49,213 nucleotides of DNA from Clostridiales bacterium (GCA_009783415.1 WRHF01000001.1:1-49213), one strand, 5' to 3'. Counted from the first letter of the stretch, positions 1 through 46,641 are shown. A program made the numbers and translations. The notes: a model not told the origin generated them from the letters alone.

Positions 1-515
1 GTTTCGAAAAAAACAAAAACCCCCGGACCGGTGACCATGCCCCCGGAAATACCCCCCCGCCGCTTCTCCCCGCCGGAAAGAGCAAAGGGCTGACGCTGAA
101 TAAAGGCGTGCGGTTCCAGGCCCACCATGATCAGAGCAGCCGTTACCAAGCCCGGCAGATCCATCTGGGCAGCCCCGAAATTTTTGGCGCCGAAAGCCAC
201 GTCCTCAAAAACCGTTTCCCCAAAAAGCTGCTGCTCCGGGTATTGAAAGACCATTCCAACCTGGCGAAAGGTCCCTTTTTTAGAGAGCCGCACCCCACCG
301 ATATCCATAATACCCTCATCCTGGTAAATTATCCCACTGATGATTTGAGCCAAGGTGCTTTTGCCGCTGCCGCTATGCCCAATCAAGGCCACCATCTCGC
401 CCTGATCGATCACAAGATTGATATCCACCAAAGCAGGCCGAGCGCCTTTTTGGTAGGTGAAACTAACGTTTGTTAATTTTATCTGCCCCGGAATTCCGAT
501 TTCATTTTCTACCAT
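1..515 (-). CDS. ecfA2: ECF transporter ATP-binding subunit, N-terminal part (gene continues beyond window start)
   Basis: Own translation of the minus strand from ATG 515-513 gives MVENEIGIPGQIKLTNVSFTYQKG... It has Walker A GHSGSGKST, Q-loop MVFQYPEQQLF and signature LSGGEKRR. It is open to base 1, so it is absent from the ORF track. It follows ecfA1 as in rplQ-ecfA-ecfA'-ecfT clusters. Confidence 0.85.
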   Translation of the reverse strand, partial: MVENEIGIPGQIKLTNVSFTYQKGARPALVDINLVIDQGEMVALIGHSGSGKSTLAQIISGIIYQDEGIMDIGGVRLSKKGTFRQVGMVFQYPEQQLFGETVFEDVAFGAKNFGAAQMDLPGLVTAALIMVGLEPHAFIQRQPFALSGGEKRRGGISGGMVTGPGVFVFFE

Positions 516-562
516 ACCTATTACCTATCACCTATTACCTATTACCTATTTTCTATTACCTG
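514..562. repeat. heptamer-arm element, orphan arm
   Basis: ATACCTA TTACCTA TCACCTA TTACCTA TTACCTA TTTTCTA TTACCTG (7 x 7 nt). It spans the ecfA1 stop (542-544) and the ecfA2 start (513-515). No complementary arm lies in the window. Confidence 0.85.
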
Positions 563-1363
563 GTATTTAAGTTGCAGCAATTTAGCTACAAGCTCCGGCA
601 CACTAGACACCCCCGTTAAACCTAACCTCGCTCCCAGCCTGTAAATATCCGGTTGTTCCAGGCCCAGGCGGGTAAAATCAGGGAAGGCAAAAATTTCTTT
701 CGGGGCGCCTTCGGCAATTAGATGCCCCTGTTCCAATATTATCACCCGCTGGGCCAGATATGCCTCTTCCATTATGTTGGTAACATAAATAATGCCCAAT
801 CCCAGCTCCTTGTGGAGATACTGCAGAGTTTCTATTACGGAAAGGCGGAGACTGGGATCCAGCATAGAAGTGGGCTCATCCAATACCAAATAGCGGGAAG
901 CCATAGCTAAGGCCCCTGCTATCGCCACCCGCTGCTTTTCTCCGCCGGAGAGTAAATGAGGCGGTTTTTTTCTTAGATCTGCCAGATTTGTAATAGCCAA
1001 AGCATCTTCTACCCGCCGGGTGATTTCCTGGGAGGAGAGACCCAGGTTTTCCGGACCGAAAGCAATGTCATCCTCAACCGTTGTGGCTACCAGCTGATTA
1101 TCCGGGTTTTGAAAAACAAAAGCCACCTGTTCCCGCAGCTGCCACAATTCTTCCTGGTTCCGGCTGTCAAGACCCTCTACCAACACCCGGCCTGCCGCAG
1201 GCAGCAGCAGCCCGTTAAGATGCCGGGCCAGGGTACTTTTGCCGGAACCATTGGGGCCAATGATTGCCAGCCACTGTCCCTGGGGTATGGTGAGGTTAAT
1301 ATCATGGAGAATGGTAGGGCCGCCCTCTTCATAAGCAAAGCTGACCCCTTCGACTTCGATCAT
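542..1363 (-). CDS. ecfA1: ECF transporter ATP-binding subunit
   Basis: 273-aa ORF with Walker A GPNGSGKST, signature LSGGEKQRVAIAGALA and Walker B YLVLDEPTSMLD. It lies directly downstream of rplQ. Confidence 0.93.
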   Translation of the reverse strand: MIEVEGVSFAYEEGGPTILHDINLTIPQGQWLAIIGPNGSGKSTLARHLNGLLLPAAGRVLVEGLDSRNQEELWQLREQVAFVFQNPDNQLVATTVEDDIAFGPENLGLSSQEITRRVEDALAITNLADLRKKPPHLLSGGEKQRVAIAGALAMASRYLVLDEPTSMLDPSLRLSVIETLQYLHKELGLGIIYVTNIMEEAYLAQRVIILEQGHLIAEGAPKEIFAFPDFTRLGLEQPDIYRLGARLGLTGVSSVPELVAKLLQLKYQVIENR

Positions 1364-1383
1364 GGATTACCTCCAAGATAATA

Positions 1384-1412
1384 TAGAAAAGCGAGGACAG
1401 CAGGCTGTCCTC
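1384..1412 (-). terminator. intrinsic terminator/attenuator after rplQ
   Basis: Minus strand: GAGGACAG-cctg-CTGTCCTC followed by GCTTTTCTATAT. Confidence 0.45.
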
Positions 1413-1436
1413 TTATCTATCTTCTTCTTTTAATTT

Positions 1437-1775
1437 TTAAACAAGTTCCAACAAAACCATTTGGGCTCCATCGCCCCGTCTTTGCTGCAGGCGGACAATC
1501 CTGGTATAGCCGCCCTGGCGTTCTTTATATTGACCGCTGATGTCCTCAAACAGCTTAGTCACCACATCTTCTTCCAGCAAAAATGCTAAAGCCCGCCGCC
1601 GTGCCGCCAGATCGCCCTGTTTGGCTACGGTGATCATTTTTTCAGCAATGCTTGCCAATTCCTTGGCCCGGGGTTCGGTTGTGGTTATTTTGCCATGTTT
1701 GAACAAAGACGTAGCCGCATTGCGCATCATAGCCCGGCGATGAGCGCTTTTTACTCCTAATCTACGGTAAGCCAA
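1437..1775 (-). CDS. rplQ: 50S ribosomal protein L17
   Basis: ORF 1437-1781. Start moved to in-frame TTG 1775 (GGAGG about 8 nt upstream), giving [19 protein letters not shown]. Last gene of the alpha operon. Confidence 0.95.
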
Positions 1776-1783
1776 TTGCAAAA

Positions 1784-1815
1784 CCTCCTAGCACGGGTTT
1801 CACCCGCAAGTATTC
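1784..1815. repeat. conserved SD-proximal hairpin module, copy 1
   Basis: CCTCCTAGCACGGGTTTCACCCGCAAGTATTC is 27/32 identical to 31818-31849. It contains the rplQ SD (reverse complement GGAGG) and the hairpin CGGGT-ttc-ACCCG. Confidence 0.75.
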
Positions 1816-1881
1816 AGAATTCAGAAACCAGAATTCAGAATGTTGGTTGGTTTTCGCTCCACGAAAACGATTGAATTAAAA
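1813..1881. repeat. heptamer-arm element, half copy (arm + core)
   Basis: Arm TTCAGAA TTCAGAA ACCAGAA TTCAGAA at 1813-1840. Core hairpin GTTTTCG-ctcca-CGAAAAC at 1850-1868. Box GATTGAATTAAAA at 1869-1881. rpoA-rplQ spacer. Confidence 0.8.
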
Positions 1882-1915
1882 TCTTTATTATTAACTTGCC
1901 TAAAGTGACTCATAT

Positions 1916-3544: not shown

Positions 3545-3579
3545 ATCGGTCCTCCTCCTAAACTGCTCCTAAAGGAGCG

Positions 3580-3656
3580 GAGTTTTGAGTTTTGAGTTCT
3601 CAACTTTGAGTTTTCAATTGTTGTAGCTTTTGCTGGGCAAAAGCTATCGAATTAAA
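3580..3656. repeat. heptamer-arm element, half copy (arm + core)
   Basis: Arm GAGTTTT GAGTTTT GAGTTCT CAACTTT GAGTTTT at 3580-3614. Core hairpin AGCTTTTGC-tgg-GCAAAAGCT at 3625-3645. Box ATCGAATTAAA at 3646-3656 overlaps the rpsK stop. Confidence 0.8.
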
Positions 3657-4431: not shown

Positions 4432-4460
4432 TTAGTTAAAACACCTCCATCTGAATAGCA

Positions 4461-4572
4461 GTTTTGAGTGTTGAGTGTTGAATTTTGAGTGTTTGTAAAA
4501 ACACTCCGTGTTTTATTGATTGAAAAAAAGGATTTTCAACACTCAACACTCAAAACTCACAACTCATAACTC
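4461..4572. repeat. heptamer-arm hairpin element, full copy
   Basis: 5' arm GTTTTGA GTGTTGA GTGTTGA ATTTTGA GTGTT at 4461-4493. Core hairpin AAAACAC-tcc-GTGTTTT at 4498-4514. 3' arm CAACACT CAACACT CAAAACT CACAACT CATAACTC at 4537-4572. rpmJ-rpsM spacer. Confidence 0.88.
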
Positions 4573-4606
4573 CCAAGGGTGAGCTCCAAAGGGGCTCACC
4601 CTTGGG
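4572..4606 (-). other. 13-bp hairpin overlapping the rpmJ 3' end
   Basis: CCCAAGGGTGAGC (4572-4584) pairs with GCTCACCCTTGGG (4594-4606) across a 9-nt loop. It covers the last three codons and the stop of rpmJ. No U-tract follows on the minus strand. Confidence 0.6.
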
Positions 4607-4709: not shown

Positions 4710-4732
4710 AGCAAAAACCCCCTTTAAATTCA

Positions 4733-4791
4733 GTGAATAATGAATAGTGAATAGTGAATAGTTGTGGTAGGTTTTGCTGCGCAAAACAACA
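4733..4791. repeat. heptamer-arm element, arm + core (3' arm degenerate)
   Basis: Arm GTGAATA ATGAATA GTGAATA GTGAATA at 4733-4760. Core hairpin GTTTTGC-tgc-GCAAAAC at 4771-4787. infA-rpmJ spacer. Confidence 0.8.
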
Positions 4792-5125: not shown

Positions 5126-5446
5126 TCAATCAGTTTCTGCTAAGCTGCTCAGAAAAAAGGAAATATGCTCCTTGCGCAAGTGCTGACCGTTTTCCAGCCT
5201 GCTCACAAAATCAGCCGCTATTTTGTGAGTGGGCTGCAAATGGCAGCGATTTTTGGCTTTGGGATTGGCCGCACCTCTTTTTTTACCGTCCACCAAAAGA
5301 ACCCGTTCCTTTGAGGTGGCCAGCACCAGATACCAATGGCCTTTATCCCGCCCTGCCTTGGAACGTACCAGCTGACCGGGACGCAAATCCGGCAGAGCTA
5401 AATCTTTGGTAGTAATTGAGGACTTCTCTTCCGCAAAGTTTGTCAT
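5126..5446 (-). CDS. KOW domain-containing RNA-binding protein
   Basis: 106-aa ORF with a KOW-like segment PGQLVRSKAGRDKGHWYLVL. It occupies the slot between adk and infA seen in many Clostridia. Confidence 0.75.
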   Translation of the reverse strand: MTNFAEEKSSITTKDLALPDLRPGQLVRSKAGRDKGHWYLVLATSKERVLLVDGKKRGAANPKAKNRCHLQPTHKIAADFVSRLENGQHLRKEHISFFLSSLAETD

Positions 5447-7922: not shown

Positions 7923-8045
7923 AATTAGGAATTAGGAATTAGGAATTAGGAGTTATTGTAGTTTTTGCTGCGCAAAAACAATTAATAAAATACTTTGCGG
8001 AGCAAAGTTACATTAATTCCTCATTCCTCATTCCTCATTCCTAAT
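7923..8045. repeat. heptamer-arm hairpin element, full copy
   Basis: 5' arm (AATTAGG)x4 at 7923-7950. Core hairpins GTTTTTGC-tgc-GCAAAAAC at 7961-7979 and CTTTGC-gga-GCAAAG at 7993-8007. 3' arm AATTCCTC ATTCCTC ATTCCTC ATTCCTAATT at 8015-8045. Confidence 0.9.
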
Positions 8046-8219
8046 TTGTTCAACAGTGAGCAGGTGAGCGATAGTCCGCACTTTACCCAGGATGTCCGGC
8101 GTGTCTTCCTGCACTACTGAGGAATGGAGCTTGCGCAAACCCAAGGATTCGGCGGTTCTGCGTTGAGAGGCCTCATAGCCGATCGGGCTTTTTGTGAGGG
8201 TGATTTTTATTTTCGCCAT
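8028..8219 (-). CDS. rpmD: 50S ribosomal protein L30
   Basis: ATG 8219 inside ORF 8028-8285 gives [28 protein letters not shown], 63 aa. The last codons (IRNEE) and the stop lie in a repeat arm. Confidence 0.94.
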
Positions 8220-9115: not shown

Positions 9116-9174
9116 AATATTACTTCCTTCCTATCATCATTAGGAGGATTATATCCCTCCCTGGAAGTCATAAA

Positions 9175-9267
9175 GAATGGAGAATTGAGAATTGAGAATG
9201 TAATGAAGGTTTTTGCTCCACAAAAACATCAATAATTCTCCATTTCCCATTTTCCATTCTCAATTCC
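9175..9267. repeat. heptamer-arm hairpin element, full copy
   Basis: 5' arm GAATGGA GAATTGA GAATTGA GAATG at 9175-9200. Core hairpin GTTTTTG-ctcca-CAAAAAC at 9209-9227. 3' arm AATTCTCCATTTCCCATTTTCCATTCTCAATTCC at 9235-9267, abutting the rplF stop. Confidence 0.9.
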
Positions 9268-9806: not shown

Positions 9807-9823
9807 AGTTACACCTCCTAAAT

Positions 9824-9945
9824 CAGATGTCAGATGCCAGAAGACAGAAGACAGAATATCTATTATTTGCTTCAATAGTTATCGCGGAACGAAAACCTAA
9901 CCTCTTCTGTCTTTAGACTTCTAACTTCTGACTCCCTACTTCTAA
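9824..9945. repeat. heptamer-arm hairpin element, full copy (first of a tandem pair)
   Basis: 5' arm CAGATGT CAGATGC CAGAAGA CAGAAGA CAGAAT at 9824-9857. The core has a degenerate hairpin and ends AAAACCTAACC. 3' arm TCTTCTG TCTTTAG ACTTCTA ACTTCTG ACTCCCT ACTTCTA at 9903-9944. Confidence 0.8.
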
Positions 9946-10060
9946 TTCAGAATCCAAAAGACGGAAGAAGGAGTATTAGGTCTTAGCTTCAACGTTTTGC
10001 GAAGCAAAACCTAACCCGTTCTGTCCTCTGTCCTCTGTCCTCTGACCTCTGTCTTCTGTC
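9946..10060. repeat. heptamer-arm hairpin element (second of a tandem pair)
   Basis: Degenerate 5' arm at 9946-9980. Core hairpin GTTTTGC-gaa-GCAAAAC at 9994-10010, followed by CTAACCC. 3' arm (CTGTCCT)x3 CTGACCT CTGTCTT CTGTC at 10021-10060, abutting the rpsH stop. Confidence 0.8.
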
Positions 10061-10461
10061 TACCAGACATAGCAGAGGACTTCTCCGCCCAAGCCTTGTT
10101 TGCGTGCGCTTTTATCGGTCATTAAGCCGCTGGAGGTGGAAACGATGGCAATGCCCAAGCCACCCAAAACCCGCGGCAATTCATCCTTTTTCGCATAAAC
10201 CCGCAAACCGGGGCGGGAAATCCGTTTCAATCCGGTAACGACCCTTTGTTTCCCGCCTGCCCCATATTTCAGGTACATGCGGATGATCCCCTGTTTGCCG
10301 TCTTCAATATATTCGACATCTTTGATAAAGCCTTCTTCTTTCAGGATATTGGCCAGGCCCATTTTGGTGCGTGAAGCAGGAACCTCCACTTTATCCAGAT
10401 AAACCATATTGGCATTGCGGATCCTGGTCAAGAAATCGGCGATAGGGTCAGTAACAACCAC
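10060..10461 (-). CDS. rpsH: 30S ribosomal protein S8
   Basis: 133-aa ORF with GTG start and GGAAGGAGG upstream; begins [17 protein letters not shown]. Confidence 0.97.
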
Positions 10462-12056: not shown

Positions 12057-12130
12057 GAATTGAGAATTGAGAATTGAGAATTGAGAATTGAAAAGAACAT
12101 TCTCAATTCTCCATTATCCATTCTCAATTC
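12057..12130. repeat. heptamer-arm hairpin element, full copy with minimal loop
   Basis: (GAATTGA)x5 at 12057-12091, loop AAAGAAC, then 3' arm ATTCTCAATTCTCCATTATCCATTCTCAATTC at 12099-12130. rpsQ-rplN spacer. Confidence 0.92.
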
Positions 12131-14057: not shown

Positions 14058-14092
14058 AATTATTTCCTCCCTTCGGCCGCGCCTTCGGCGCG

Positions 14093-14217
14093 GAGGTTTG
14101 AGTGTTGAATTTTGAGTTTTGAGTTTTGGAAAGCCTTGCTTCGCAAAGCCTGTTAACTAAAGCGTTTCGCATAGCGAAACTTCAAAAACTCAAAACTCAG
14201 CACTCAAAGCTCAAAAC
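14093..14217. repeat. heptamer-arm hairpin element, full copy
   Basis: 5' arm GAGGTTT GAGTGTT GAATTTT GAGTTTT GAGTTTT at 14093-14127. Core hairpins GCCTTGC-ttc-GCAAAGC at 14133-14149 and GTTTCGC-ata-GCGAAAC at 14164-14180. 3' arm TTCAAAAACTCAAAACTCAGCACTCAAAGCTCAAAAC at 14181-14217. Confidence 0.9.
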
Positions 14218-14222
14218 TTTAC

Positions 14223-14507: not shown

Positions 14508-14530
14508 AAGACTTAACCTCCGTTACAAAA

Positions 14531-14626
14531 GAATTGAGAATTGAGAATTGATAATGGAGAATGATTGTAGTTTTTGCTTTGCAAAAACATCTATAATTCT
14601 CAATTCTCCATTCTCCATTCTCCATT
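14531..14626. repeat. heptamer-arm hairpin element, full copy
   Basis: 5' arm (GAATTGA)x3 TAATGGA GAATG at 14531-14563. Core hairpin GTTTTTGC-ttt-GCAAAAAC at 14570-14588. 3' arm AATTCTCAATTCTCCATTCTCCATTCTCCATT at 14595-14626. Confidence 0.9.
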
Positions 14627-14632
14627 GCAACT

Positions 14633-15463
14633 TTATTTGTTCGTTCTGTGTTTGATGATCATCCTGTTGGATTGTTTGTTGCGCTTACGGGTTTTGGCGC
14701 CCAGGGCCGGTTTTCCCCAAGGTGTGACCGGATTGCGGCCTACCGGGCTGCGGCCTTCACCGCCTCCGTGGGGGTGATCTACCGGGTTCATAACCACGCC
14801 GCGGTTAGTGGGCCGGATCCCTTTCCAGCGGTTGCGGCCGGCTTTGCCGATAGTGATATTGCCTTGATCTGCATTGCCCACCTGCCCTATCGTAGCCCGG
14901 CAGTTGACCAACACCATCCGCATTTCTCCGGAGGGCATCCGCAGGGTGGCATATTTGCCTTCCTTGGCCATCAGTTGAATCGTGCTTCCGGCTGAGCGGC
15001 CCATTTTGGCGCCCCGGCCCGGCAGCATTTCCACATTATGAACCACGGTGCCCACAGGAATGGAAGCTAAGGGCAAGGCATTACCCGGACGGATATCCAC
15101 CTCCCGGCCGGAAACCAGCACATCGCCTACGGATATACCCTGAGGGGCAATGATATAACGTTTTTCCCCATCGGCATAGTTGAGCAGAGCAATATTGGCG
15201 GTACGATTGGGATCGTATTCGATAGTTGCTACCTTAGCCGGGATATTATCCTTATCCCGTTTAAAGTCGATCACCCGAAAGCGCCGCTTATGACCGCCGC
15301 CTTGATGGCGCATGGTCAGACGGCCTTGATTATTGCGGCCGGAATTCTTTTTCAAGGGCTCCAAGAGAGATTTTTCCGGGACAGAAGTGGTAATTTCCTC
15401 AAAAGTGGAAACAGTCATATCACGGCGCCCGGGGGAAGTAGGCTTATATTTTTTAATACCCAA
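14633..15463 (-). CDS. rplB: 50S ribosomal protein L2
   Basis: 276-aa ORF with TTG start; contains [14 protein letters not shown]...[14 protein letters not shown]. Confidence 0.97.
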
Positions 15464-15518: not shown

Positions 15519-15570
15519 GCTTTGCCTAAGCAAAGCTACAAGATCTGGCCTCTGTCATCTGGCCTCTGTT
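15519..15570. repeat. heptamer-arm element, half copy (core + 3' arm)
   Basis: Core hairpin GCTTTGC-ctaa-GCAAAGC at 15519-15536. Arm TCTGGCC TCTGTCA TCTGGCC TCTGTTT at 15543-15570, ending at the rplW stop. Confidence 0.75.
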
Positions 15571-17144: not shown

Positions 17145-17234
17145 AAACGGCACCCCCGTTTTTCTCTCGAGTTACCTTGGCGTCGGTATTGCTCGATTTT
17201 GCTTTCTTCACGCCTTCCGGCTGAGCCGAAGGCA

Positions 17235-17306
17235 GTGAATAATGAATAGTGAATAATGAATAGTTGCGGAGGAAACGCTCCGCGTTTCTTTTATTTAAAT
17301 TAAAAA
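17235..17306. repeat. heptamer-arm element, half copy (arm + core)
   Basis: Arm GTGAATA ATGAATA GTGAATA ATGAATA at 17235-17262. Core hairpin GAAACGC-tcc-GCGTTTC at 17272-17288, then TTTTATTTAAATTAAAAA. Confidence 0.8.
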
Positions 17307-17328: not shown

Positions 17329-17423
17329 GTCAGAGTTTGAAATTTCAGAATGGTTGGTTTTATATATTTTCGCGGGGCGAAAATATATAAAATTCTGACT
17401 TCTGAATTCTGACTTCTGAATTC
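17329..17423. repeat. heptamer-arm hairpin element, full copy
   Basis: 5' arm GTCAGAGTTTGAAATTTCAGAATG at 17329-17352. Perfect 16-bp core hairpin TTTTATATATTTTCGC-ggg-GCGAAAATATATAAAA at 17358-17392. 3' arm TTCTGAC TTCTGAA TTCTGAC TTCTGAA TTC at 17393-17423. Confidence 0.88.
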
Positions 17424-17731
17424 TACAGCTTGATTTCGATGTCGACGCCTGCGGGGAGATCCAGCCTCATCATGGCGTCCATGGTTTTGGCAGTAGGATC
17501 CAGAATATCAATGAGACGCTTGTGGGTCCTCATTTCAAATTGCTCTCTGGAATCCTTGTTAACATGGGGGGAACGCAATATAGTATAGATATTTTTTTCC
17601 GTGGGCAGCGGAATAGGGCCGCTGACACCTGCCCCCGTACGTTTGGCAGTTTCCGCAATTTTTACCGCAGACAGATCCAATAGTTTATGATCAAAAGCCT
17701 TGAGCCGGATCCTGATTCTTTGTTTTCCCAT
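17423..17731 (-). CDS. rpsJ: 30S ribosomal protein S10
   Basis: 102-aa ORF beginning [19 protein letters not shown]. Confidence 0.97.
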
Positions 17732-17841
17732 TGGGTATTCCTCCTAATTCGCCTGTATTATTGACAGACATTCTCCACGGGAATTACCTCCAACCGGAGC
17801 AACCTCCCGCTTCATCGCATCTGTGCTCTCGCCTTGCGAGA

Positions 17842-17901
17842 GAATGAGGAATTAGGAATGAGGAATTTTCAACTTCTAATTCCTAACTCCTAATTCCTAA
17901 C
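17842..17901. repeat. heptamer-arm hairpin element, full copy with minimal loop
   Basis: GAATGAG GAATTAG GAATGAG GAATTTT at 17842-17869, loop CAAC, then TTCTAAT TCCTAAC TCCTAAT TCCTAAC at 17874-17901. tuf-rpsJ spacer. Confidence 0.88.
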
Positions 17902-17905
17902 TGCT

Positions 17906-19108: not shown

Positions 19109-19200
19109 TTAATTCTACCTCCGTTTTTGTAAAATTTACCTTCGTAGTTTTTAATTTATCTTTATCTATACAGGAAAATCCTGCTGTAACCGGGGTTTTT

Positions 19201-19357
19201 CAATTGACAATTGACAATGGACAATGGACAATTGTTGTTGTTTCGCTCTGCGAAACTTTTATTTAATAAAACCATCTTTTAGTTCAATAATCGGTTTTGC
19301 GAAGCAAAACCTTCCAAAAAATTGTCAATTGTCAATCGTCAATTGTCAATTGTCAAT
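19201..19357. repeat. heptamer-arm hairpin element, full copy
   Basis: 5' arm CAATTGA CAATTGA CAATGGA CAATGGA CAATTG at 19201-19234. Core hairpins GTTTCGC-tct-GCGAAAC at 19240-19256 and GGTTTTGC-gaa-GCAAAACC at 19293-19311. 3' arm ATTGTCA ATTGTCA ATCGTCA ATTGTCA ATTGTCA AT at 19321-19357 contains the fusA stop. Confidence 0.9.
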
Positions 19358-21428
19358 ACCCTCGGTGTCTTACGACAATACTCTCGGTTATATTCTTCGG
19401 TACCTCGAAGTAGTGGTCAAATTGCATGGTATACGTGCCGCGGCCTTGGGTTTTGGAGCGTAGGTCTGTGGCGTAGCCGAACATTTCGGATAGGGGTACA
19501 TAGCCCCGGATTATTTGCAGGCCGCCTTTTAGCTCTACGCCTTCCATCCTGCCCCGGCGGGAGTTGAGATCGCCTATGACATCACCCATATATTCTTCCG
19601 GTACAGAGATTTCGATTTTGAAGACAGGCTCTAAAATAACCGGCATGGCTTTGGCAGTCCCGTCTTTGAAGGCCAGGGACCCTGCGATTTTAAAGGCCAT
19701 TTCCGAAGAATCCACCTCATGGAAACTGCCGTCTACCAGAGTGGCTTTGATGTCCACCGCCGGATAGCCGGCTAAAATGCCGTTTTCCATAGCTTCTTTA
19801 ATACCTGCTTCTACCGGGGCAATAAATTCTTTGGGTATTACCCCGCCCACAATTTTGTTTTCAAAGACGAAACCGGCTCCCGGTTCCTGGGGTTCAAATT
19901 CTACTACGCAATGCCCGTACTGGCCGTGGCCGCCGGTTTGACGCACGTGTTTGCCTACGCCCTTGACGGAACTGCGAATGGTTTCTTTATAAGCCACTTG
20001 AGGCTTGCCCACATTGGCATCGACCCGAAACTCCCGGAGCAGGCGGTCAACAATAATCTCCAAATGCAGTTCGCCCATACCGGCAATCAGAGTCTGTCCG
20101 GTCTCGATATTGGAACGGATCCGGAAAGTAGGATCTTCTTCCGTCAATTTTTGCAAGGCAAGCGCCATTTTATCCTGGTCGGCAGTAGTTTTGGGCTCAA
20201 TGGAAACATCAATGACCGGATCGGGGAAATCCATGGATTCCAGTATCACCTGGGAGTTTTCCGCACAGAGCGTATCCCCGGTCGCGGTAAATTTAAGCCC
20301 TACCGCTGCCAATATATCACCGGCATAGGCATGCGGTATTTCCTCCCGGGAGTTGGCATGCATTTGCAAAAGGCGCCCGACCCGCTCTTTTTTGCCTTTA
20401 GTACTATTATAGACATAAGAACCGTTATTTAAGACCCCGGAATAAACTCTGAAAAATGTCAGCTTCCCCACATAAGGGTCAGTGATAATCTTAAAAGCCA
20501 GGGCCGCAAAAGGCTCGTCGTCGGTAGAATGGCGGACAATGCTCTCGCCGTTAGCATCCGTTCCCTGGATATCGGCAACATCGGTAGGGGCGGGCAGAAA
20601 ATAAACAACGGCATCCAGCAGCTGCTGCACCCCTTTATTTTTAAATGAGGAGCCGCATAGCACCGGGGTAACGGCTACTGCCAAAGTAGCCCGGCGCAAG
20701 CCCCTGATGATTTCTTCTTCAGTAAGCTCTTCCCCCTCCAGATATTTGAGGGTCAGTTCTTCATCGTATTCGGCCGCCGCTTCAATCATTTTATCCCGGT
20801 ATTCCTGAGCCAGCTCCCGTAAATCTTCGGGGATCTCCTGAATTTCGATCTCCCGGCCTTCTTTATCGGTATAGATATTGGCTTCCATTTTGATCAAGTC
20901 TACCAGGCCAAGAAAGTTCTCCTCGCCCCCGATAGGGATTTGCAGGGCCACGGGATTGGCCGATAAGCGCTGACGGATCATTTCTATAGCCCGGAAAAAG
21001 TCGGCGCCGACCCGGTCCATCTTATTGATATAAGCAATACGGGGTACGCCATAGTGGTCTGCCTGACGCCAAACCGTTTCCGATTGCGGTTCCACACAAC
21101 CCACCGAGCAGAACACGGCCACGGCCCCATCCAACACCCGCAAGGAGCGTTCCACCTCTACAGTAAAGTCAACGTGCCCGGGTGTATCTATAATATTGAT
21201 CCTATGATCCTGCCAAAAACAAGTAGTAGCGGCGGAAGTGATAGTGATCCCCCGCTCTTGTTCTTGCACCATATAATCCATAGTAGCAGCGCCGTCATGC
21301 ACCTCACCGGTACGGTGGACCTTGCCGGTATAAAACAAGATCCGCTCGGTGGTAGTGGTTTTACCGGCGTCGATATGGGCCATGATGCCAATATTTCGAG
21401 TTTTTTGCAAAGAAAATTCCCTAGACAT
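19353..21428 (-). CDS. fusA: elongation factor G
   Basis: ATG 21428 inside ORF 19353-21560 gives [28 protein letters not shown]. The upstream 44 codons are read-through of a repeat. Confidence 0.97.
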
Positions 21429-21443
21429 GACGTCTCCTTCGTC

Positions 21444-22050: not shown

Positions 22051-22082
22051 TACTTTCACCCCTTTGCCGCACCTTCGATGCG

Positions 22083-22766: not shown

Positions 22767-22771
22767 ACGAA

Positions 22772-30323: not shown

Positions 30324-30372
30324 TTAGAAGTTAGAAGTTAGAAGTTAGAAGTTAGAAAATAGAAAATAGAAT
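30324..30372. repeat. heptamer-arm element, arm in rpoB leader; candidate left arm of a cassette-bracketing pair
   Basis: (TTAGAAG)x4 TTAGAAA ATAGAAA ATAGAAT. The best complementary partner in the window is 32171-32205 (27/35 by hand alignment). Confidence 0.8.
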
Positions 30373-30672: not shown

Positions 30673-31809
30673 TTAGCCGAATAAAGACAGCAAAACCCCG
30701 GCGGCTATGGCCGAACCTATTACGCCGGCCACATTGGGGCCTATCGCATGCATCAGCAGGTAATTAGCGGGATTTGCCCTTTGCCCCTCAACTTGGGAAA
30801 TGCGGGCAGCCATGGGAACAGCCGATACACCCGCAGAACCTATCAAGGGGTTTATTTTTCCCTTGGAGAGCCAGTACATCAGCTTACCAAAGAACAGCCC
30901 CCCCATAGTGCTGAAAATAAAGGCAAAAAGTCCGAGGAAAATAATTTTTATTGTTTCCCACTGCAAAAAGGTTTCCGCCGCCGCAGTAGCGCCTACTGTA
31001 ACCCCCAAAAATATGGTAACAATATTTATCAGCGCATTCTGGGCAGTATCAGACAAGCGCTCGACGACCCCCGATTCTTTAAAGAGATTCCCCAGCATCA
31101 GCATCCCGATCAAAGGAGCGACAGCCGGTAATAAAAGTACGCATAAAACTGTAACCACAATGGGAAATAAAATCTTCTCCAATTTTGAGACCTTGCGTAT
31201 TTGGGTCATAACGGTTTCTTTTTCTTTTTTGGTAGTTAGCAGGCGCATAAAGGGAGGCTGAATTATAGGAATCAGGGCCATATAAGAATAGGCGGCTATG
31301 GCAATAGCCGGCAATAATTTCGGCGCAAGTCTAGACGTCAAATAGATTGCAGTAGGACCGTCTGCCCCACCGATAATTGATATGGATGCGGCTTCTTGGG
31401 GGGTAAATTTTAGTGAAATTGCCAAAATAAAGGCCACGGCAATTCCAAACTGAGCCGCCGCTCCCAAAAACAGGCTGCTCGGCCTGGCAATTAGGGGGCC
31501 AAAGTCTGTCATTGCTCCTACCCCAAAAAAGATAAGTGAAGGGTATATCCCCAATTTTACCCCTTGGTACAAATAGTATAGCAGGCCCCCCGCTTCGGAA
31601 TCGCTTGCCGGCCCGTTCATCAACCCGGCTAAAGGCAGGTTAGCAAGCAGGACCCCAAAAGCAATCGGAAGCAATAAGAGCGGCTCAAATTTTCGGGCGA
31701 TCGCCAGATAAACCAAGACACAGGCTATAATGATCATCGCTATATTTCCCCAGGTTATAGCTGTGAAGCCCGATGTTCCCCATATTTCCTTTAAGGCGTC
31801 AATAAACAC
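30673..31809 (-). CDS. oadB: sodium ion-translocating decarboxylase beta subunit (OadB/GcdB/MmdB family)
   Basis: 378-aa polytopic ORF with GTG start and AGGAGTGG upstream. The N-terminus MFIDALKEIWGTSGF...ARKFEPLLLLPIAFGVLLANLP is typical of the family. The substrate of the parent enzyme cannot be told from sequence. Confidence 0.85.
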   Translation of the reverse strand: MFIDALKEIWGTSGFTAITWGNIAMIIIACVLVYLAIARKFEPLLLLPIAFGVLLANLPLAGLMNGPASDSEAGGLLYYLYQGVKLGIYPSLIFFGVGAMTDFGPLIARPSSLFLGAAAQFGIAVAFILAISLKFTPQEAASISIIGGADGPTAIYLTSRLAPKLLPAIAIAAYSYMALIPIIQPPFMRLLTTKKEKETVMTQIRKVSKLEKILFPIVVTVLCVLLLPAVAPLIGMLMLGNLFKESGVVERLSDTAQNALINIVTIFLGVTVGATAAAETFLQWETIKIIFLGLFAFIFSTMGGLFFGKLMYWLSKGKINPLIGSAGVSAVPMAARISQVEGQRANPANYLLMHAIGPNVAGVIGSAIAAGVLLSLFG

Positions 31810-31817: not shown

Positions 31818-31849
31818 ACTCCTAACGCGGGTTTCACCCGCAAATATTA
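31818..31849. repeat. conserved SD-proximal hairpin module, copy 2
   Basis: ACTCCTAACGCGGGTTTCACCCGCAAATATTA. It contains the oadB SD (reverse complement AGGAGT) and the hairpin GCGGGT-ttc-ACCCGC. Confidence 0.75.
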
Positions 31850-32170: not shown

Positions 32171-32205
32171 TTCTAACATCTATCCTCTAACTTCTATCCT
32201 CTAAT
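32171..32205. repeat. heptamer-arm element, pyrimidine-rich arm; candidate right arm of the 30324 pair
   Basis: TTCTAAC ATCTATC CTCTAAC TTCTATC CTCTAAT. The reverse complement ATTAGAGGATAGAAGTTAGAGGATAGATGTTAGAA matches the (GTTAGAA)n arm at 30324-30372. Confidence 0.7.
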
Positions 32206-32351: not shown

Positions 32352-32379
32352 GACCTCAGTCCTCTGGCCTCTGCCTTCT
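32352..32379. repeat. heptamer arm interrupted by the MITE
   Basis: CCTCAGT CCTCTGG CCTCTGC CTTCTGG. It continues after the MITE as CTGCCTTCTGGCTTCTTT (32561-32578). Confidence 0.6.
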
Positions 32380-32560
32380 GGGTGCATCACATTTTCTGGG
32401 GTTGACAAAGAACGCATTGCCCATTGTAGGGGCGGCCATTGGTCGTCCGCGGACGCGCAATGCGCGCCCCTACAGGCATATATCCATGATACATTAGAGC
32501 TGCACATCCCTTTGTCATGTCTATTATTACCATGTCAACCCCAAATTTTGTGATGCACCC
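32380..32560. mobile_element. MITE-like element (181 bp) with 28-bp terminal inverted repeats and 9-10 bp target duplication
   Basis: The left terminal inverted repeat (TIR) GGGTGCATCACATTTTCTGGGGTTGACA (32380-32407) matches the reverse complement of the right TIR (32533-60), GGGTGCATCACAAAATTTGGGGTTGACA, at 24/28 positions. The element is flanked by the direct repeat CTGCCTTCT(G) at 32371-32380 and 32561-32570. It contains an internal stem GTAGGGGCG...CGCCCCTAC and no plausible coding capacity. Confidence 0.7.
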
Positions 32561-38194: not shown

Positions 38195-38220
38195 ACTCAA
38201 AACTCAACACTCAAAACTCC
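38195..38220. repeat. heptamer-arm element, orphan arm
   Basis: ACTCAAA ACTCAAC ACTCAAA ACTCC, the complement type of the GAGTTTT/GAGTGTT arms. It lies downstream of the DHHW gene. Confidence 0.7.
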
Positions 38221-39216: not shown

Positions 39217-39235
39217 GCCGCGCCTTTGGCGCGGC

Positions 39236-39445
39236 AGTGTGGAGTGTGGAGTGTGGAGTGTGGAGTTATTGAAGTTTTGCTCCGCAAAACAATTTATTAT
39301 AAGAAAACTATTCAAGAGTGTTTTTACTGATACTATAACTTCAATAATACACATATATGTTTTCGCATATCGAAAACCAACATAACACTTCACTCTCAAC
39401 TCTCAACTCTCCACACTCCACTCTCCACTCTCCACACTCCACTCT
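39236..39445. repeat. heptamer-arm hairpin element, full copy with long core
   Basis: 5' arm (GTGTGGA)x4 at 39237-39264. The 120-nt core has hairpins GTTTTGC-tcc-GCAAAAC at 39274-39290 and GTTTTCG-catat-CGAAAAC at 39359-39377. The 3' arm has 8 units CTTCACT CTCAACT CTCAACT CTCCACA CTCCACT CTCCACT CTCCACA CTCCACT at 39388-39443. It lies between the plus-strand genes ymdB and the dipeptidase. Confidence 0.9.
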
Positions 39446-39468: not shown

Positions 39469-40434
39469 ATGAGAGTAGACGCCCACAACGACACTGCTCT
39501 ACGCCTTTGGGATCTACCTACCATACGTACTGCTCCTGTCGATTATAGGCTTCAGGGACAGTTTTCTCCTCAGGCGGATTTGCTGCGTTGGCAGGAAAAT
39601 TTTGACATTGCTTTTTTTGCTGTCTATATCGACCAGGAAGCTTATGCCGGCCGCTATTTTGCCGCCAGTCAGGAACTGTTCCGCCGCCTGAAAAGGGATT
39701 TGGCCGCTAACAGCGATATTGTCCGGCTTGTCCTCCGGCGGGATGATGTGAGGAAGGATCCCCGCCTTGGGGTTTTGCTGGCAATTGAGGGAGCCGAATG
39801 CTTAGGCGATAACCCGGAACTGCTCCGGGCTTATTTTCATATTGGCGTACGCAGTCTGGGCTTTACCCATAACCCCGCTAATGCCCTGGCCGGAGGCTGC
39901 CAAGCAAAAGGCGGCTTCACCGAGGCAGGCCGCCGCACCGCCCGGCTCGCCAATGAAATCGGGATAATTCTGGATGGCGCTCACCTTAATGAAGAGAGTT
40001 TTTGGGATTTATTGGAAATAAGCAGCCAACCGGTAATCATCTCTCATACTGCCGCCGCCGCTTTGCGCCCTCATTACCGCAACCTGAGCAACGAACAATT
40101 GCGGGCTGTAGCGGCAAACGGCGGAGTGGTTGGAGTGACTTTTGCCAATCTTTTCCTGGCCGATGATGCAGATCTGTCCGACTACCTGCGCCACCTGGAG
40201 CATGTGGCAAAAGTAGCAGGCATAGATCATGTAGGGATCGGCTCCGATTTCGACGGCTGCGATCTGCCTCGGGGGATCAATTCCGTTTCCGATATGCACA
40301 AAGTACTGACCGGCTTAAAAGAAATTGGCTTTAGTGATCTAGAAATCGCCAAAGTCTATGGAGAAAATTTCTGTCGGATTATGAGAAAGATACTGCCGTG
40401 TGATACGGCAGAATTGAAAAAGGAAAAAGGATAA
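39469..40434 (+). CDS. membrane dipeptidase (peptidase M19)
   Basis: 321-aa ORF with AAGGAGG upstream; contains MRVDAHNDTALRL...ISHTAAAALRPHYRNLSNEQL...GIGSDFDG. The last 6 codons lie in a heptamer arm. Confidence 0.88.
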   Translation: MRVDAHNDTALRLWDLPTIRTAPVDYRLQGQFSPQADLLRWQENFDIAFFAVYIDQEAYAGRYFAASQELFRRLKRDLAANSDIVRLVLRRDDVRKDPRLGVLLAIEGAECLGDNPELLRAYFHIGVRSLGFTHNPANALAGGCQAKGGFTEAGRRTARLANEIGIILDGAHLNEESFWDLLEISSQPVIISHTAAAALRPHYRNLSNEQLRAVAANGGVVGVTFANLFLADDADLSDYLRHLEHVAKVAGIDHVGIGSDFDGCDLPRGINSVSDMHKVLTGLKEIGFSDLEIAKVYGENFCRIMRKILPCDTAELKKEKG

Positions 40435-40930
40435 AGGAAAATTGGTAACAGATAATTAATAGTTGGTAATTGATAATTTTAGTGGGATTGGTGGGATTGA
40501 TTTGAGTAATGTTGTTCGGGAGAAAAGTTTTGGATTTGCTGTTCGGATTGTTCGATTATATAAGTTTTTGTGTGCTGAAAAGAAAGAATATGTTCTTTCA
40601 AAGCAGCTTTTGAAGAGTGGAACCAGCATTGGCGCAAATATTGAAGAATCCTTACAAGCCCAAGGGAAAAGGGATTTTCTGAATAAAACCAACATTGCCC
40701 TTAAAGAAGCAACCGAAACCCTATACTGGCTCCGCCTACTCCACGCAACCGGATATATAGATGAAAAACAGACCCAAAGCATATCCTCAGATTGCAAAGA
40801 AATAACTGCCATTCTAGTATCAATCGTAAAAACAACAAAAGCAAATCTAGAACGATCAAGCAAAAAAGAAACCAAACAAATCCCCAAAGAATAGTGATTT
40901 TCCTTTTTCCTTTTTCCTTTTTCCTTTTTC
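40417..40930. repeat. heptamer-arm element carrying a gene in its loop
   Basis: 5' arm AAAAAGG AAAAAGG ATAAAGG AAAATTGG at 40417-40445. 3' arm (CCTTTTT)x4 at 40902-40929 within 40898-40930. The arms are near-perfect complements, and the only content between them is the four-helix-bundle ORF. Confidence 0.85.
40502..40894 (+). CDS. four-helix-bundle protein (23S rRNA intervening-sequence protein family, Avd-like)
   Basis: ORF 40463-40894. TTG 40502 is preferred (GGTGGG 6 nt upstream), but the start is uncertain. EKSFGFAVRIVRLYKFLCAEKKEYVLSKQLLKSGTSIGANIEESLQAQGKRDFLNKTNIALKEATETLYWLRLL matches the TIGR02436/PF05635-type pattern from memory. Confidence 0.85.
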   Translation: MSNVVREKSFGFAVRIVRLYKFLCAEKKEYVLSKQLLKSGTSIGANIEESLQAQGKRDFLNKTNIALKEATETLYWLRLLHATGYIDEKQTQSISSDCKEITAILVSIVKTTKANLERSSKKETKQIPKE

Positions 40931-40958
40931 AATTTATAAATCACCGGAGGTGATTTAC

Positions 40959-43975: not shown

Positions 43976-44005
43976 ATTGTACCACAGGGTGAGCTTCGCC
44001 CGCAA
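43976..44005 (-). promoter_or_regulatory. candidate promoter of the SIR2-like gene (extended -10)
   Basis: TTGCGG (44005-44000), 18 nt, TGgTACAAT (-10 at 43981-43976). Confidence 0.45.
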
Positions 44006-44006
44006 C

Positions 44007-44070
44007 CTAGTGGCTAGTAACTAGTGGCTATAACGGATGACTTTCGCCCCGCGAAAGGATTGAATTAAAA
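44007..44070. repeat. heptamer-arm element, half copy (arm + core)
   Basis: Arm CTAGTGG CTAGTAA CTAGTGG CTATAAC at 44007-44034. Core hairpin CTTTCGC-ccc-GCGAAAG at 44041-44057. Box GATTGAATTAAAA at 44058-44070, 7 nt from the comEB stop. Confidence 0.8.
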
Positions 44071-44077
44071 GCATATA

Positions 44078-44563: not shown

Positions 44564-44578
44564 AATTAGCTAACCTCC

Positions 44579-45682: not shown

Positions 45683-45765
45683 AGTATTTATTAGTTCCTT
45701 TCTTGGGTTGGAGTTTGTTTGCTGGGGATTAGAAAGCAAGTAACAAGTAACAGGGCTGTTTTGGA

Positions 45766-46218
45766 TTATTTGCCCTTTTTCAGCTCGATATCTTTAATGT
45801 GTTCTTCAAAATATTGCATTGTAGAATATTGACAAAGCAACTTATTCCTGTAAATATGTAGCGCTGTTTTCGCTGCTTTATATTCCGAAATGTGCTTGAT
45901 AAGTTTTTGCTTAATTATATATTCCTTACCTCGCAAAGAATCAAATTCATTCTGACGAATAAAAGGTTTCTTAGTATTATCAATATATTTCTCATCTGCA
46001 ATAACTACCGCCTTGGAAAAATCTAAGCCACACCTATTATTCTTGTCCGTCCATAATACATGTTCCTTATGATTAATGTCAGATCTTAAGGGAATAGCAA
46101 ACTGCACATCGTTTATTTTGGTGTAAACTAGCGCATAAGGGCGCATAGATTTTTGCTCTATTTCCGTGCATTCTTTATATTTGTCATAAAATAGCTCATT
46201 TAGAAACAGGAACTTCAT
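45766..46218 (-). CDS. type III toxin-antitoxin toxin, ToxN/AbiQ-like endoribonuclease
   Basis: ORF 45766-46233. ATG 46218 is preferred (GGAGG 8 nt upstream). MKFLFLNELFYDKY...RPYALVYTKINDVQFAIPLRSDINHKEH resembles the ToxN/AbiQ N-terminal pattern. It is preceded by a repeat array and hairpin. Very AT-rich. Confidence 0.65.
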   Translation of the reverse strand: MKFLFLNELFYDKYKECTEIEQKSMRPYALVYTKINDVQFAIPLRSDINHKEHVLWTDKNNRCGLDFSKAVVIADEKYIDNTKKPFIRQNEFDSLRGKEYIIKQKLIKHISEYKAAKTALHIYRNKLLCQYSTMQYFEEHIKDIELKKGK

Positions 46219-46239
46219 GCAATATGCCTCCATAAATGA

Positions 46240-46264
46240 CTATAGCCCTATAATAGGGCTATAG
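46240..46264 (-). terminator. perfect hairpin between repeat array and toxin (attenuator-like, as in toxIN loci)
   Basis: CTATAGCCCTA-tta-TAGGGCTATAG, an 11-bp stem followed by TCATTTAT. There is no clean U-tract, so it may only attenuate transcription. Confidence 0.45.
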
Positions 46265-46356
46265 TCTTCTCAGTGAACTTTTTTTTGTTTACCCTGCTCA
46301 CGTTCTATGAGCAGATCTTCTCAGTGAACTTTTTTTATACTCACGTTCTATGAGTA
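46265..46356 (-). ncRNA. candidate type III antitoxin RNA (ToxI/CptI-like), two tandem repeats
   Basis: Transcript sense: unit 1 (46356-46314) is TACTCATAGAACGTGAGTAT-A7-GTTCACTGAGAAGATC. Unit 2 (46313-46265) is TGCTCATAGAACGTGAGCAGGGTAAAC-A8-GTTCACTGAGAAGA. The internal 6-bp hairpin shows a compensatory change between units. The locus lies between a consensus promoter and the toxin gene. Confidence 0.6.
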
Positions 46357-46391
46357 TTTATAGAATAAGATGAATCTTACTCTTTGTTATT

Positions 46392-46420
46392 ATTATACGC
46401 AGCAAATCGAAATATGTCAA
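46392..46420 (-). promoter_or_regulatory. sigma-A type promoter of the repeat-array/toxin locus
   Basis: TTGACA (46420-46415), 17 nt, TATAAT (46397-46392): a perfect consensus. Confidence 0.7.
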
Positions 46421-46585
46421 GAATTCGAAGGAAAATTCCAGGACAATCGCAATGAAAATATTAGTCAATTGCAAGTAATAATATACTATAAATAGCATAG
46501 CCTGTCAAGTATTTTATCAGGGATAGCTGTGAAAACTATTCCCCCAAAAACCTGCAACCGCTGTGTGCTTTTAACTAAAATAATG

Positions 46586-46641
46586 GTTTCGCAAAGCGAA
46601 ACTTCATTACCTGTAACCTGTAACCTATTACTTATTACCTG
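46586..46641. repeat. heptamer-arm element, half copy (core + 3' arm)
   Basis: Core hairpin GTTTCGC-aaa-GCGAAAC at 46586-46602. Arm TTACCTG TAACCTG TAACCTA TTACTTA TTACCTG at 46607-46641, abutting the comM stop. It uses the same 7-mer type as 514-562. Confidence 0.8.

Follow-up and report, generated by a model that had tools for sequence, protein, structure and literature searches.

Tandem repeats of a 7-nt unit are an over-represented class of long simple repeat in many bacterial genomes. To our knowledge, these heptamer repeats have been described separately for each group (cyanobacteria, Xanthomonas, Beggiatoaceae, and Bacteroidetes), and no origin or function is accepted for them. Intervening sequences of rRNA that bear an open reading frame (ORF) have been an oddity since the 1990s; in 23S rRNA, such a sequence is reported also for Leptospira. 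Here, we describe a 49,213-nt stretch of DNA from a Clostridiales bacterium (GCA_009783415.1, WRHF01000001.1:1-49213), the whole of which is called the window below. Loci built from 7-nt units occupy spacers of its ribosomal gene cluster, many of them as inverted pairs of arms that fold into hairpins, and one pair encloses a gene of the four-helix-bundle family TIGR02436/PF05635.

The 23S rRNA intervening sequence of Coxiella burnetii contains an S23p (PF05635) ORF and has a 28-bp terminal stem; tandem GACAGAT heptamers, variable in number among strains, occupy the part of the 5′ arm that immediately precedes the ORF (PMC4990558). It is excised by RNase III, with the 5′ cut mapped at the first heptamer repeat, and is viewed as a selfish element tolerated through RNase III cleavage of the stem (PMC4990558). 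In Xanthomonas campestris, Rehm et al. (2015) found 186 arrays of the GGGAATC type, including 70 convergent inverted pairs (PMC4692102). The Xanthomonas arrays are 89% intergenic, lie mostly between co-oriented ORFs at a mean of 28 nt from the upstream ORF, are not conserved at the same genes between species, and were read as G-quadruplex-forming (PMC4692102). The TAACTGA repeats of Beggiatoaceae, cyanobacteria, and Bacteroidetes (MacGregor 2015) are intergenic direct repeats of two to six copies near gene boundaries, patchy across phyla and of unknown function (PMC4679880). Heptamer repeats are also present in regulatory regions of Nostoc, with regulatory effects, and CspB binds heptamer-wise. 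The cyanobacterial STRR of Mazel (1990) are reportedly intergenic tandem heptamers, and the SDR hairpin modules of Nostoc, in the abstract of Elhai (2008), are said to be ~21-27 nt long, conserved in structure and not in sequence, and embedded in heptamer arrays. The canonical STRR units are CCCCAGT, TTGGTCA, and CAACAGT. Correia elements are RNase III substrates, and REPINs comprise many ORF-less copies plus one gene with the repeat on its own flanks.

Tandem Repeats Finder (TRF) reports 45 period-7 rows in the window, and 12 more at periods 14 and 21, whereas dinucleotide shuffles of the window (n = 20) yield 1.0 period-7 rows on average and never more than 4. Sixteen loci are inverted arm pairs, with arms of 10-46 nt that are Watson-Crick complementary at 381 of 430 positions (89%), and about 12 further loci are single arms, often accompanied by a core hairpin. 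The unit varies by locus (GAATTGA, AATTAGG, GAGTTTT/GAGTGTT, GTGAATA, CAGAAGA, CAATTGA, GTGTGGA, GAAAAAG, and others); despite this, the right arm is complementary to its own left arm at each pair. Both strands of each interval were folded and compared with 100 dinucleotide shuffles. All 15 ORF-less full intervals give z ≤ −3.9 on at least one strand, 12 of them on both, while coding control intervals have a mean z of −0.4. The strongest z of the paired elements ranges from about −4 to −12, and the minimum free energies of the ORF-less full intervals range from −17 to −83 kcal/mol. A first-pass annotation, made from the sequence alone, had listed the period-7 arrays with their positions, described inverted partner arms that co-vary while the unit differs between loci, and proposed folding against shuffled controls; its observation is borne out.

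The polarity of the arms should be noted. The same annotation had described a G-rich left arm and a C-rich right arm in most copies, and the rule is stricter than that: in every one of the 16 pairs, G outnumbers C in the + strand left arm and C outnumbers G in the right arm, and in about 11 pairs the left arm is entirely free of C and the right arm entirely free of G. This polarity is identical whichever strand is read. The trinucleotide GAR is weakly enriched in the units (27 of 40 versus 19.7 expected, P ~0.005), which is a hint only, the loci being non-independent. A search for target-site duplications at the elements found none, and an Rfam scan, of the kind the first-pass annotation had called for, gave no matching family.

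The host is an uncultured Bacillota bacterium. The minus strand of positions 1-30312 holds a Bacillota-type cluster, rpoB-rpoC-L7Ae-rpsL-rpsG-fusA-tuf-S10-spc-alpha-rplQ-ecfA, and accessory genes follow it. The closest L2 proteins among the matches listed are 72% identical (Peptococcaceae, Syntrophomonadaceae, and Moorella). A cyanobacterial host, guessed from the likeness to STRR and SDR, was ruled out by the Bacillota gene order, the unsplit rpoC, and the lack of HIP1 enrichment (one match in the window versus 0.85 expected). The sequence of the window is recovered at 99.3-100% identity in four independent assemblies (the NCBI metagenome-assembled genome (MAG) GCA_031283245.1, an ENA assembly, and two Logan assemblies), and is therefore not an assembly artefact.

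Most paired elements lie between genes of the ribosomal cluster. The element at 4460-4576 in the rpmJ-rpsM spacer has GAGTGTT/GAGTTTT arms of 23-34 nt, 100% complementary over 23 nt (z −6.2/−5.7), and the element at 7923-8046 in the rpmD-rplO spacer has AATTAGG arms and a two-hairpin core (z −11.9/−8.4); a heptamer arm of the latter encodes the end of rpmD, namely its final five codons and its stop (IRNEE*, 8028-8046). TRF, pairing, and folding together define four elements: GAATTGA arms with a single-hairpin core at 9174-9267 (rplF-rplR), GAGTTTT arms with two-hairpin cores at 14093-14218 (rpsS-rplV) and 21443-21577 (rpsG-fusA), and GAGTTTT/GAATTTT arms at 22083-22207 (rpsL-rpsG). The same evidence, with core alignment in addition, defines the element at 14525-14640 (rplB-rpsS), which has GAATTGA arms and the core GTTTTTGC-TTT-GCAAAAAC. 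Two elements share the rpsH-rplF spacer, one with CAGAAGA-type arms in the rplF-proximal half at 9823-9945 (z −2.7 on the + strand and −4.7 on the − strand) and one with GGACAGA-type arms adjoining the rpsH stop at 9946-10061 (z −1.9 and −4.6, respectively). CAGAATT-type arms at 17329-17424 adjoin the rpsJ stop (TRF, folding, and position), and CAATTGA arms with a two-hairpin core are found at 19192-19361 in the fusA-tuf spacer (pairing and folding). Two pairs are "empty": (GAATTGA)5, a 7-10-nt loop, and (ATTCTCA)4.6 at 12057-12130 in the rpsQ-rplN spacer (z −7.3/−6.2), and GGAATTA/GGAATGA arms at 17842-17902 in the tuf-rpsJ spacer (TRF and strain comparison). At 22637-22785, in the L7Ae-rpsL spacer, the GTGAATA left arm and the hairpin core of what had been called a full copy (22637-22766) are present, but the right arm is weak (z −0.5 on the + strand and −5.6 on the − strand). 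The element at 39236-39445, between + strand accessory genes, has GTGTGGA arms and a 124-nt core with two small hairpins (z −10.5/−8.6).

The spacers that hold these elements are inflated, as the first reading had noticed. They measure 100-280 nt, compared with about 10-30 nt in relatives, which were drawn as controls from the L2 search (≤72% identity, among the matches listed). Relative to the medians of 60-80 other Bacillota, the rpmD-rplO spacer is 126 nt versus 8, rpsH-rplF 253 versus 27, rplF-rplR 151 versus 19, rplB-rpsS 125 versus 22, and rpsQ-rplN 100 versus 27, so that element-bearing spacers are 4-15 times the median. The relatives contain only nine arrays of at least three heptamers across ~1.3 Mb. 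The tightly coupled pairs rplD-rplW, rplV-rpsC, rpsC-rplP, and rplO-secY have no insertions. Measured from the upstream stop codon, the element starts at −14 to +4 nt in 12 of 15 cases; about half of the 15 leave 14-35 nt, with the ribosome-binding site, before the next start, and the others leave up to 184 nt. Elements also occur between unrelated accessory genes and beside divergent genes. Mechanical ORF calls of rplN, rplF, fusA, rpsG, and rpmD extend upstream into the elements and thereby acquire false N-terminal extensions. On the − strand at 17749-17823, between the tuf-rpsJ element and rpsJ, the sequence matches the S10-Clostridia ribosomal-protein leader of Rfam (RF03136, 40.4 bits); the leader is intact, the element lying upstream of it.

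Small hairpins form the cores. About 20 perfect hairpins of the type W4-6-YGC-N3-GCR-W4-6, with A/T-rich stems, are found, every one intergenic; since the list was chosen for perfect pairing, the covariation within it is not independent evidence. Local alignments between cores score 30-43 versus a shuffled maximum of 23, in agreement with the relatedness proposed at first reading. The similarity joins elements that have different arms, in either orientation, which makes the cores dispersed modules that do not depend on the arms. The empty pairs at 12057-12130 and 17842-17902 have no core. The short cores were also considered as derivatives of the two ends of the element with the gene, a reading that was rejected because no similarity is visible by eye. 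In addition, about eight elements carry a small GC-rich hairpin, possibly a third module, immediately outside the left arm. Such hairpins are located at 1793-1808, 14078-14092, 17826-17842, 21428-21444, 22067-22083, 31833-31848, 39217-39235, and 43986-44005; examples are CGCGCC-TTCG-GCGCG and GCGGGTTTCACCCGC, the latter occurring twice. When metagenomes were scanned with the core TTGTAGTTTTTGCNNNGCAAAAAC, six loci came up whose copy of the hairpin lies inside a cluster of three small hairpins, without heptamer arms. In these JGI contigs (L106-L111), which belong to other organisms, TTGTAGTTTTTGC-N3-GCAAAAAC is the middle hairpin of the three, and its neighbors have similar YGC...GCR loop ends. 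The clusters look like a separate dispersed repeat and are uninformative for the elements of the window.

The elements vary between close strains. The window and a MAG contig (L001) are 99.4% identical over 13 kb, and their differences include two 14-nt, i.e., two-unit, indels within arms, one at 10032-10045 in the right arm of the element at 9946-10061, and one at 17234-17247 in the arm of the single-arm locus at 17234-17306. A whole element is exchanged in the tuf-rpsJ spacer. The window and a second contig (L002) have (TTAGGAA)4-loop-(TTCCTCA)3 with a small GC hairpin, whereas L001 has instead a 149-nt, CAATTGA-armed two-hairpin element, which is a paralogue of the fusA-tuf element of the window, visibly similar throughout and in the same orientation. 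The arms and the core can therefore spread together. The GC-rich hairpin at 17826-17842 is absent from L001 together with its element.

The locus at 40417-40930 had been taken for a plain long copy, which overlooked a protein gene. It is a full-length element (40412-40934, recognized by pairing) whose GAAAAAG arms, 30 nt and 97% complementary, surround a four-helix-bundle gene at 40463-40897 on the + strand, with a likely TTG start at 40502. The gene product matches NCBIfam TIGR02436 with 111 bits (cut-off 24) and PDB entry 2RLD with an E-value of 1e-40. The family TIGR02436/PF05635 is annotated as "23S rRNA intervening-sequence protein". PF05635 proteins share homology with Avd, which serves as accessory protein in diversity-generating retroelements (PMC10053308). 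The family is very large, with more than 7,700 significant relatives among the matches listed per search, and many homologues are on contigs shorter than 2 kb. Avd itself is a nucleic-acid-binding pentamer, and we know of no function for the TIGR02436 family outside diversity-generating retroelements.

We inspected the flanks of 23 cellular homologues, including the window copy, from Bacillota, Cyanobacteriota, Bacteroidota, Spirochaetota, Chloroflexota, Pseudomonadota, and KSB1. Besides the window, these comprise 3 metagenome/MAG loci, 12 plasmid-borne loci (Treponema, Monoglobus, Bernardetia, Chondrinema, Chlorohelix, and seven cyanobacteria), a Christensenella conjugative element, 4 loci of Ruminococcus, Tissierellaceae, KSB1, and Dyella, and the 2 loci of X. 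campestris and X. citri. Period-7 arrays are present on both sides of the gene in 22 of the 23, mostly abutting the ORF and mutually inverted, with a locus-specific unit; the X. citri homologue has the left arm only. Apart from the arrays beside the gene, no substantial period-7 array (≥3.5 copies) occurs in the 40-kb contexts of Monoglobus and Bernardetia. The homologues are mostly inserted between co-oriented operon genes (hsdS/hsdR, accB/accC, kinase/response regulator, RND adaptor/permease, and helicase/methylase). Since heptamers are known genome-wide in Xanthomonas, arms of the GGGAATC type were predicted around the X. campestris gene, and the prediction held: CGGGAAT ×4.4 and CCCATTC ×4.3 flank it between accB and accC. 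In a literature search of the searchable library, the Coxiella study alone links the four-helix-bundle family to heptamer repeats.

Several features of individual homologues are added here. The gene is located between accB and accC in both Xanthomonas and Dyella (L118, L121, and L130), so that its insertion into this conserved operon looks ancient and inherited vertically. X. citri has lost the right arm, and its four-helix-bundle ORF continues into accC. The three gene copies of Nostoc flagelliforme lie in segmental duplications and say nothing on whether arms travel with the gene. On plasmids of Anabaena cylindrica and Pseudanabaena (L096 and L098), four-helix-bundle genes and heptamer arrays are found beside cas1/cas2 adaptation genes. 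The Candidatus Chlorohelix plasmid (L102) has a second inverted pair, GAACGAT and TTCATCC, at 22791-22823 and 24327-24353, 1.5 kb apart and inside an annotated 4.2-kb N-6 DNA methylase coding sequence; it may be an intragenic element or reflect a mis-annotated fusion.

From these observations, we lean toward regarding the elements as selfish, fast-evolving palindromic insertions akin to the S23p intervening sequence and the Xanthomonas repeats, which would be tolerated via RNase III cutting. In the proposed model, each element would be two inverted arrays of a locus-specific 7-nt unit, with an apex that may be empty, hold one or two hairpin modules (~20-35 nt), or, in the full-length form, hold the gene of an Avd-like four-helix bundle. 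Its niche would be the gap between a stop codon and the next ribosome-binding site in co-transcribed genes, presumably the only slot that tolerates insertion. Arm length would shift by slippage, and whole elements would be copied or replaced. In the polycistronic RNA, the arms would form an imperfect duplex of roughly 20-45 bp, which RNase III would cut, by analogy with the Coxiella intervening sequence; the cleavage would remove the apex or cargo and separate the transcript between cistrons. The first-pass annotation had offered an RNase III substrate or an exonuclease-blocking stem, and the former gains indirect support from the build of the Coxiella element. For the gene-bearing copy, the cut would free a small four-helix-bundle mRNA. 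Such cutting would explain how an essential, highly expressed operon can hold at least 17 insertions, as rRNA tolerates fragmentation. It would do no harm between cistrons, just as at the tips of rRNA helices, and would thereby define the niche. The anatomy of the elements, their folding, their position, their polymorphism, and their link to the four-helix-bundle gene are observed directly; cutting by RNase III and a role for the protein, if any, are what we infer.

A number of results weigh against the model of selfish elements tolerated through RNase III. The strict polarity of the arms (G and little or no C in the 5′ arm) is left unexplained by it. The arm mismatches are mostly non-wobble (32, versus 10 that are G·U-compatible on the + strand and 7 on the − strand), and a test for wobble bias of the folded strand over the 430 arm positions gives no signal. 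Likewise, the folding energies of the 15 ORF-less intervals favor neither strand and reveal no preference for the transcribed one. Selection for an mRNA duplex is thus unsupported by mismatches or energies, and a DNA-level process fits equally well. Several arms are mismatched every 7 bp, which might weaken recognition by RNase III, and the RNase III gene is not within the window. As to the gene, it is present in only 1 of ~28 loci, the other ~27 having no ORF; the short forms are at most putative descendants of gene-bearing ones, and the cores, compared by eye with the interior and ends of 40412-40934 in printed sequences, have no evident similarity to them. Two phage-contig homologues have no arms, and the arm polarity is reversed in three cyanobacterial loci.

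An origin at the DNA level alone, by slippage and hairpin template switching, is a serious rival, though we judge it rather unlikely. The elements would then be neutral palindromic microsatellites, generated by slippage and by hairpin or cruciform intrastrand template switching; the gene would prefer hairpin apices, and no RNA processing would be involved. The unit-number indels between strains fit this explanation, as do the equal folding of both strands and the absence of a sense-strand wobble bias. Arms are internally homogenized yet keep a fixed mismatch to the partner, e.g., AATTAGG versus AATGAGG, and empty palindromic arrays do exist (12057-12130, and positions 454-505 of the homologous metagenome/MAG contig L086). 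The array that hosts another mobile insert (32380-32560) is also consistent with it. Nevertheless, slippage alone explains neither the strict polarity nor the dispersal of whole elements to new spacers, stable stems (−23 to −83 kcal/mol) in the mRNA of an essential operon are expected to matter unless they are processed, and the Coxiella element, which has the same build, is cut by RNase III.

Alternatively, the elements may benefit the host as punctuation, that is, as selected stems for RNA processing or stabilization that set the stoichiometry of ribosomal proteins in the manner of Clostridium intercistronic stem-loops or REP/BIME. Their location directly after the stop codons of co-transcribed genes, with the next ribosome-binding site free, is compatible with this role, and selective processing and stabilization of RNA at intergenic stem-loops has been reported in Clostridium (PMC4423207). 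We find this explanation distinctly improbable: the orthologous spacers of ~80 other Bacillota are short and contain no period-7 arrays, the elements vary even among strains that are almost identical and can be replaced by ones with unrelated units, they also occur between unrelated accessory genes and beside divergent genes, and the same architecture holds a selfish-looking gene in seven phyla.

Still more doubtful is that the elements bind a protein, either a cold-shock-type OB-fold protein or a pentamer of the four-helix bundle, or that, jointly with the small GC-rich and A/T-stem hairpins, they stop antisense transcription into the operon. Terminator-like sites number 47 versus 28.8 ± 5.3, mostly on the antisense strand, and in several of them a T-rich arm follows a core or GC hairpin; the literature on heptamer-wise binding by CspB and on regulatory effects of Nostoc heptamers points in the same direction. 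The T-richness of the + strand, however, accounts for part of the terminator count, promoter-like sites (27 versus 24.3) show no enrichment, and a unit that is specific to each locus argues against a sequence-specific binder. Formation of G-quadruplexes, as proposed for the G-rich heptamers of Xanthomonas and Nostoc, is refuted for the window, whose units have no runs of three G and cannot form them, even though the architecture matches the convergent GGGAATC repeats of Xanthomonas.

Going beyond the preferred reading of selfish, RNase III-tolerated insertions, it is possible, and we put it forward tentatively, that the gene and the heptamer hairpins are one RAYT/REPIN-like system spread over at least seven phyla, with a gene-bearing master copy between inverted 7-mer arrays, many ORF-less derivatives, and a protein that makes, maintains, or moves the arms in trans. 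If true, this would account for the cyanobacterial STRR, the Xanthomonas and Beggiatoa heptamers, and the origin of ORF-bearing 23S intervening sequences, and its mechanism would have left the strict polarity and the fixed period of 7 as footprints. In any case, the window ties together heptamer repeats, the four-helix-bundle family, and ORF-bearing rRNA intervening sequences, and its Bacillota host has spread ORF-less copies through the most conserved operon of bacteria. In practice, such elements break short-read assemblies and create false ORF extensions in ribosomal genes, and their variability among strains could serve for typing markers.

The remaining loci of the window are single or incomplete arms. 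Arms accompanied by a hairpin (TRF and hairpin list, unless stated) are (ATTCAGA)4.3 with GTTTTCG-CTCCA-CGAAAAC at 1812-1881 in the rpoA-rplQ spacer (TRF), GAGTTTT with a 10-bp core hairpin at 3580-3656 in the rpsK-rpsD spacer, GTGAATA with GTTTTGC-TGC-GCAAAAC at 4732-4791, a core hairpin with a C-rich arm (ATCTGGC/CTCTGTC) at 15519-15569 in the rplW-rplB spacer, GTGAATA/ATGAATA with GAAACGC-TCC-GCGTTTC at 17234-17306 (TRF and strain comparison), a CTAGTGG-type arm of period 14 with CTTTCGC-CCC-GCGAAAG at 44007-44070, and GTTTCGC-AAA-GCGAAAC with a C-rich arm (ACCTGTA)2.6 at 46586-46641. Arms for which TRF is the evidence are (TACCTAT)6.7, of the C-rich type, at 515-561, (TTAGAAG)4.9 just upstream of rpoB at 30324-30371, a C-rich arm (TCTAACTTCTATCC) at 32172-32204, and a C-rich (ACTCAAA)3.6 at 38195-38219. 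The (TTAGAAG)n arm at 30324-30371 and the arm at 32172-32204, the complement of TTAGAGG/ATAGAAG, are ~85% complementary when compared by eye; the 1.8 kb between them contains a gene for an oadB-like sodium-translocating decarboxylase beta subunit (30673-31809, − strand). The two arms may be one very long element or a coincidence.

At 32352-32379, what had been listed among the half or orphan copies is indeed a short array (CCTCTGG/CCTTCTG), but it is interrupted by a different, inverted-repeat insert. The insert (32380-32560) is 181 nt long, has 28-nt terminal inverted repeats that are 86% complementary, lies inside the array, and is bordered on both sides by an 11-nt duplication (CTGCCTTCTGG). 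A miniature transposable element of another kind thus appears to have inserted into a heptamer array.

Two neighboring loci are of separate interest. Two tandem ~48-nt units at 46262-46350 (− strand) immediately precede the gene for a TenpIN-family type III toxin at 45766-46233 on the same strand (NCBIfam NF047358, 138 bits), and one of the units matches the Rfam 6A RNA (RF02925, 65.7 bits). Because the 6A-matching repeat is directly upstream of the toxin gene, the 6A motif may be the repeat-RNA antitoxin of this toxin. Between adk and infA, at 5126-5446 (− strand), there is a 106-aa ORF with no NCBIfam match and no precomputed Pfam hit. Many Bacillota have map at this position.

Comparison with the known systems places the elements as follows. 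As in Coxiella, the element at 40412-40934 has a PF05635 ORF inside an inverted heptamer stem, and the arms of the window form long stems with a heptamer copy number that varies between strains (the two 14-nt indels). Unlike the Coxiella element, which is situated in helix 45 of 23S rRNA with one copy per gene, the window has ~28 loci in 49 kb between protein genes, almost all ORF-less, and RNase III cutting is here suggested by analogy. The S23p elements in general occupy helix 25 or 45 of 23S rRNA, whereas the Rfam scan and the gene map find no rRNA in the window. No reverse transcriptase and no template or variable repeat is present near the gene, a difference from Avd systems.

The arrays resemble those of Xanthomonas in being convergent inverted pairs that are intergenic, placed between co-oriented ORFs, near the upstream one, and led by the G-rich arm. 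Xanthomonas has one dominant G-tract unit (GGGANTN), while the units of the window are many and none has a GGG run; the Xanthomonas paper draws no link to the four-helix-bundle gene or RNase III (PMC4692102). STRR likewise are tandem heptamers in intergenic DNA, and cyanobacterial four-helix-bundle genes are flanked by such arrays. The host of the window, unlike the STRR hosts, is a member of Bacillota without HIP1 enrichment, and CCCCAGT, TTGGTCA, CAACAGT, and TAACTGA form no tandems in the window. The TAACTGA repeats also differ in having a single unit, nearly always in direct orientation, just upstream of start codons. Small hairpin modules that may be comparable to SDR are present in the window, in elements with different arms and in both orientations.

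The elements are similar to REP/BIME, REPIN-RAYT, Correia, and ERIC in that they are short intergenic palindromes inside operons that fold in mRNA. The REP, Correia, and ERIC families have a conserved sequence and terminal repeats, with target duplications in the miniature elements, in contrast to the locus-specific 7-mers here. REP/BIME and REPIN have a conserved imperfect palindrome of 20-40 nt and an associated RAYT transposase; the window lacks a transposase, and its only conserved palindromes are the small cores. CRISPR has repeats of 24-48 nt with unique spacers, whereas the unit here is 7 nt, head to tail, and without spacers. The first-pass annotation had already judged that REP/BIME, ERIC, BOX, RUP, Correia, and CRISPR do not fit, and the lack of a conserved terminal repeat and of a target duplication agrees with this judgment. 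A gene flanked by its own repeat in REPIN-RAYT parallels the four-helix-bundle gene and its arms, although the RAYT protein is a Y1 transposase and the protein here is a four-helix bundle without known catalytic activity. The further description of the elements as an unrecognized family stands in part: they have heptamer kin in Xanthomonas, STRR, Beggiatoaceae, and Coxiella, while their density in a Bacillota ribosomal operon and their link to the four-helix-bundle gene appear to be new. The elements are thus a Bacillota variant of a widespread, poorly understood class of inverted heptamer arrays.

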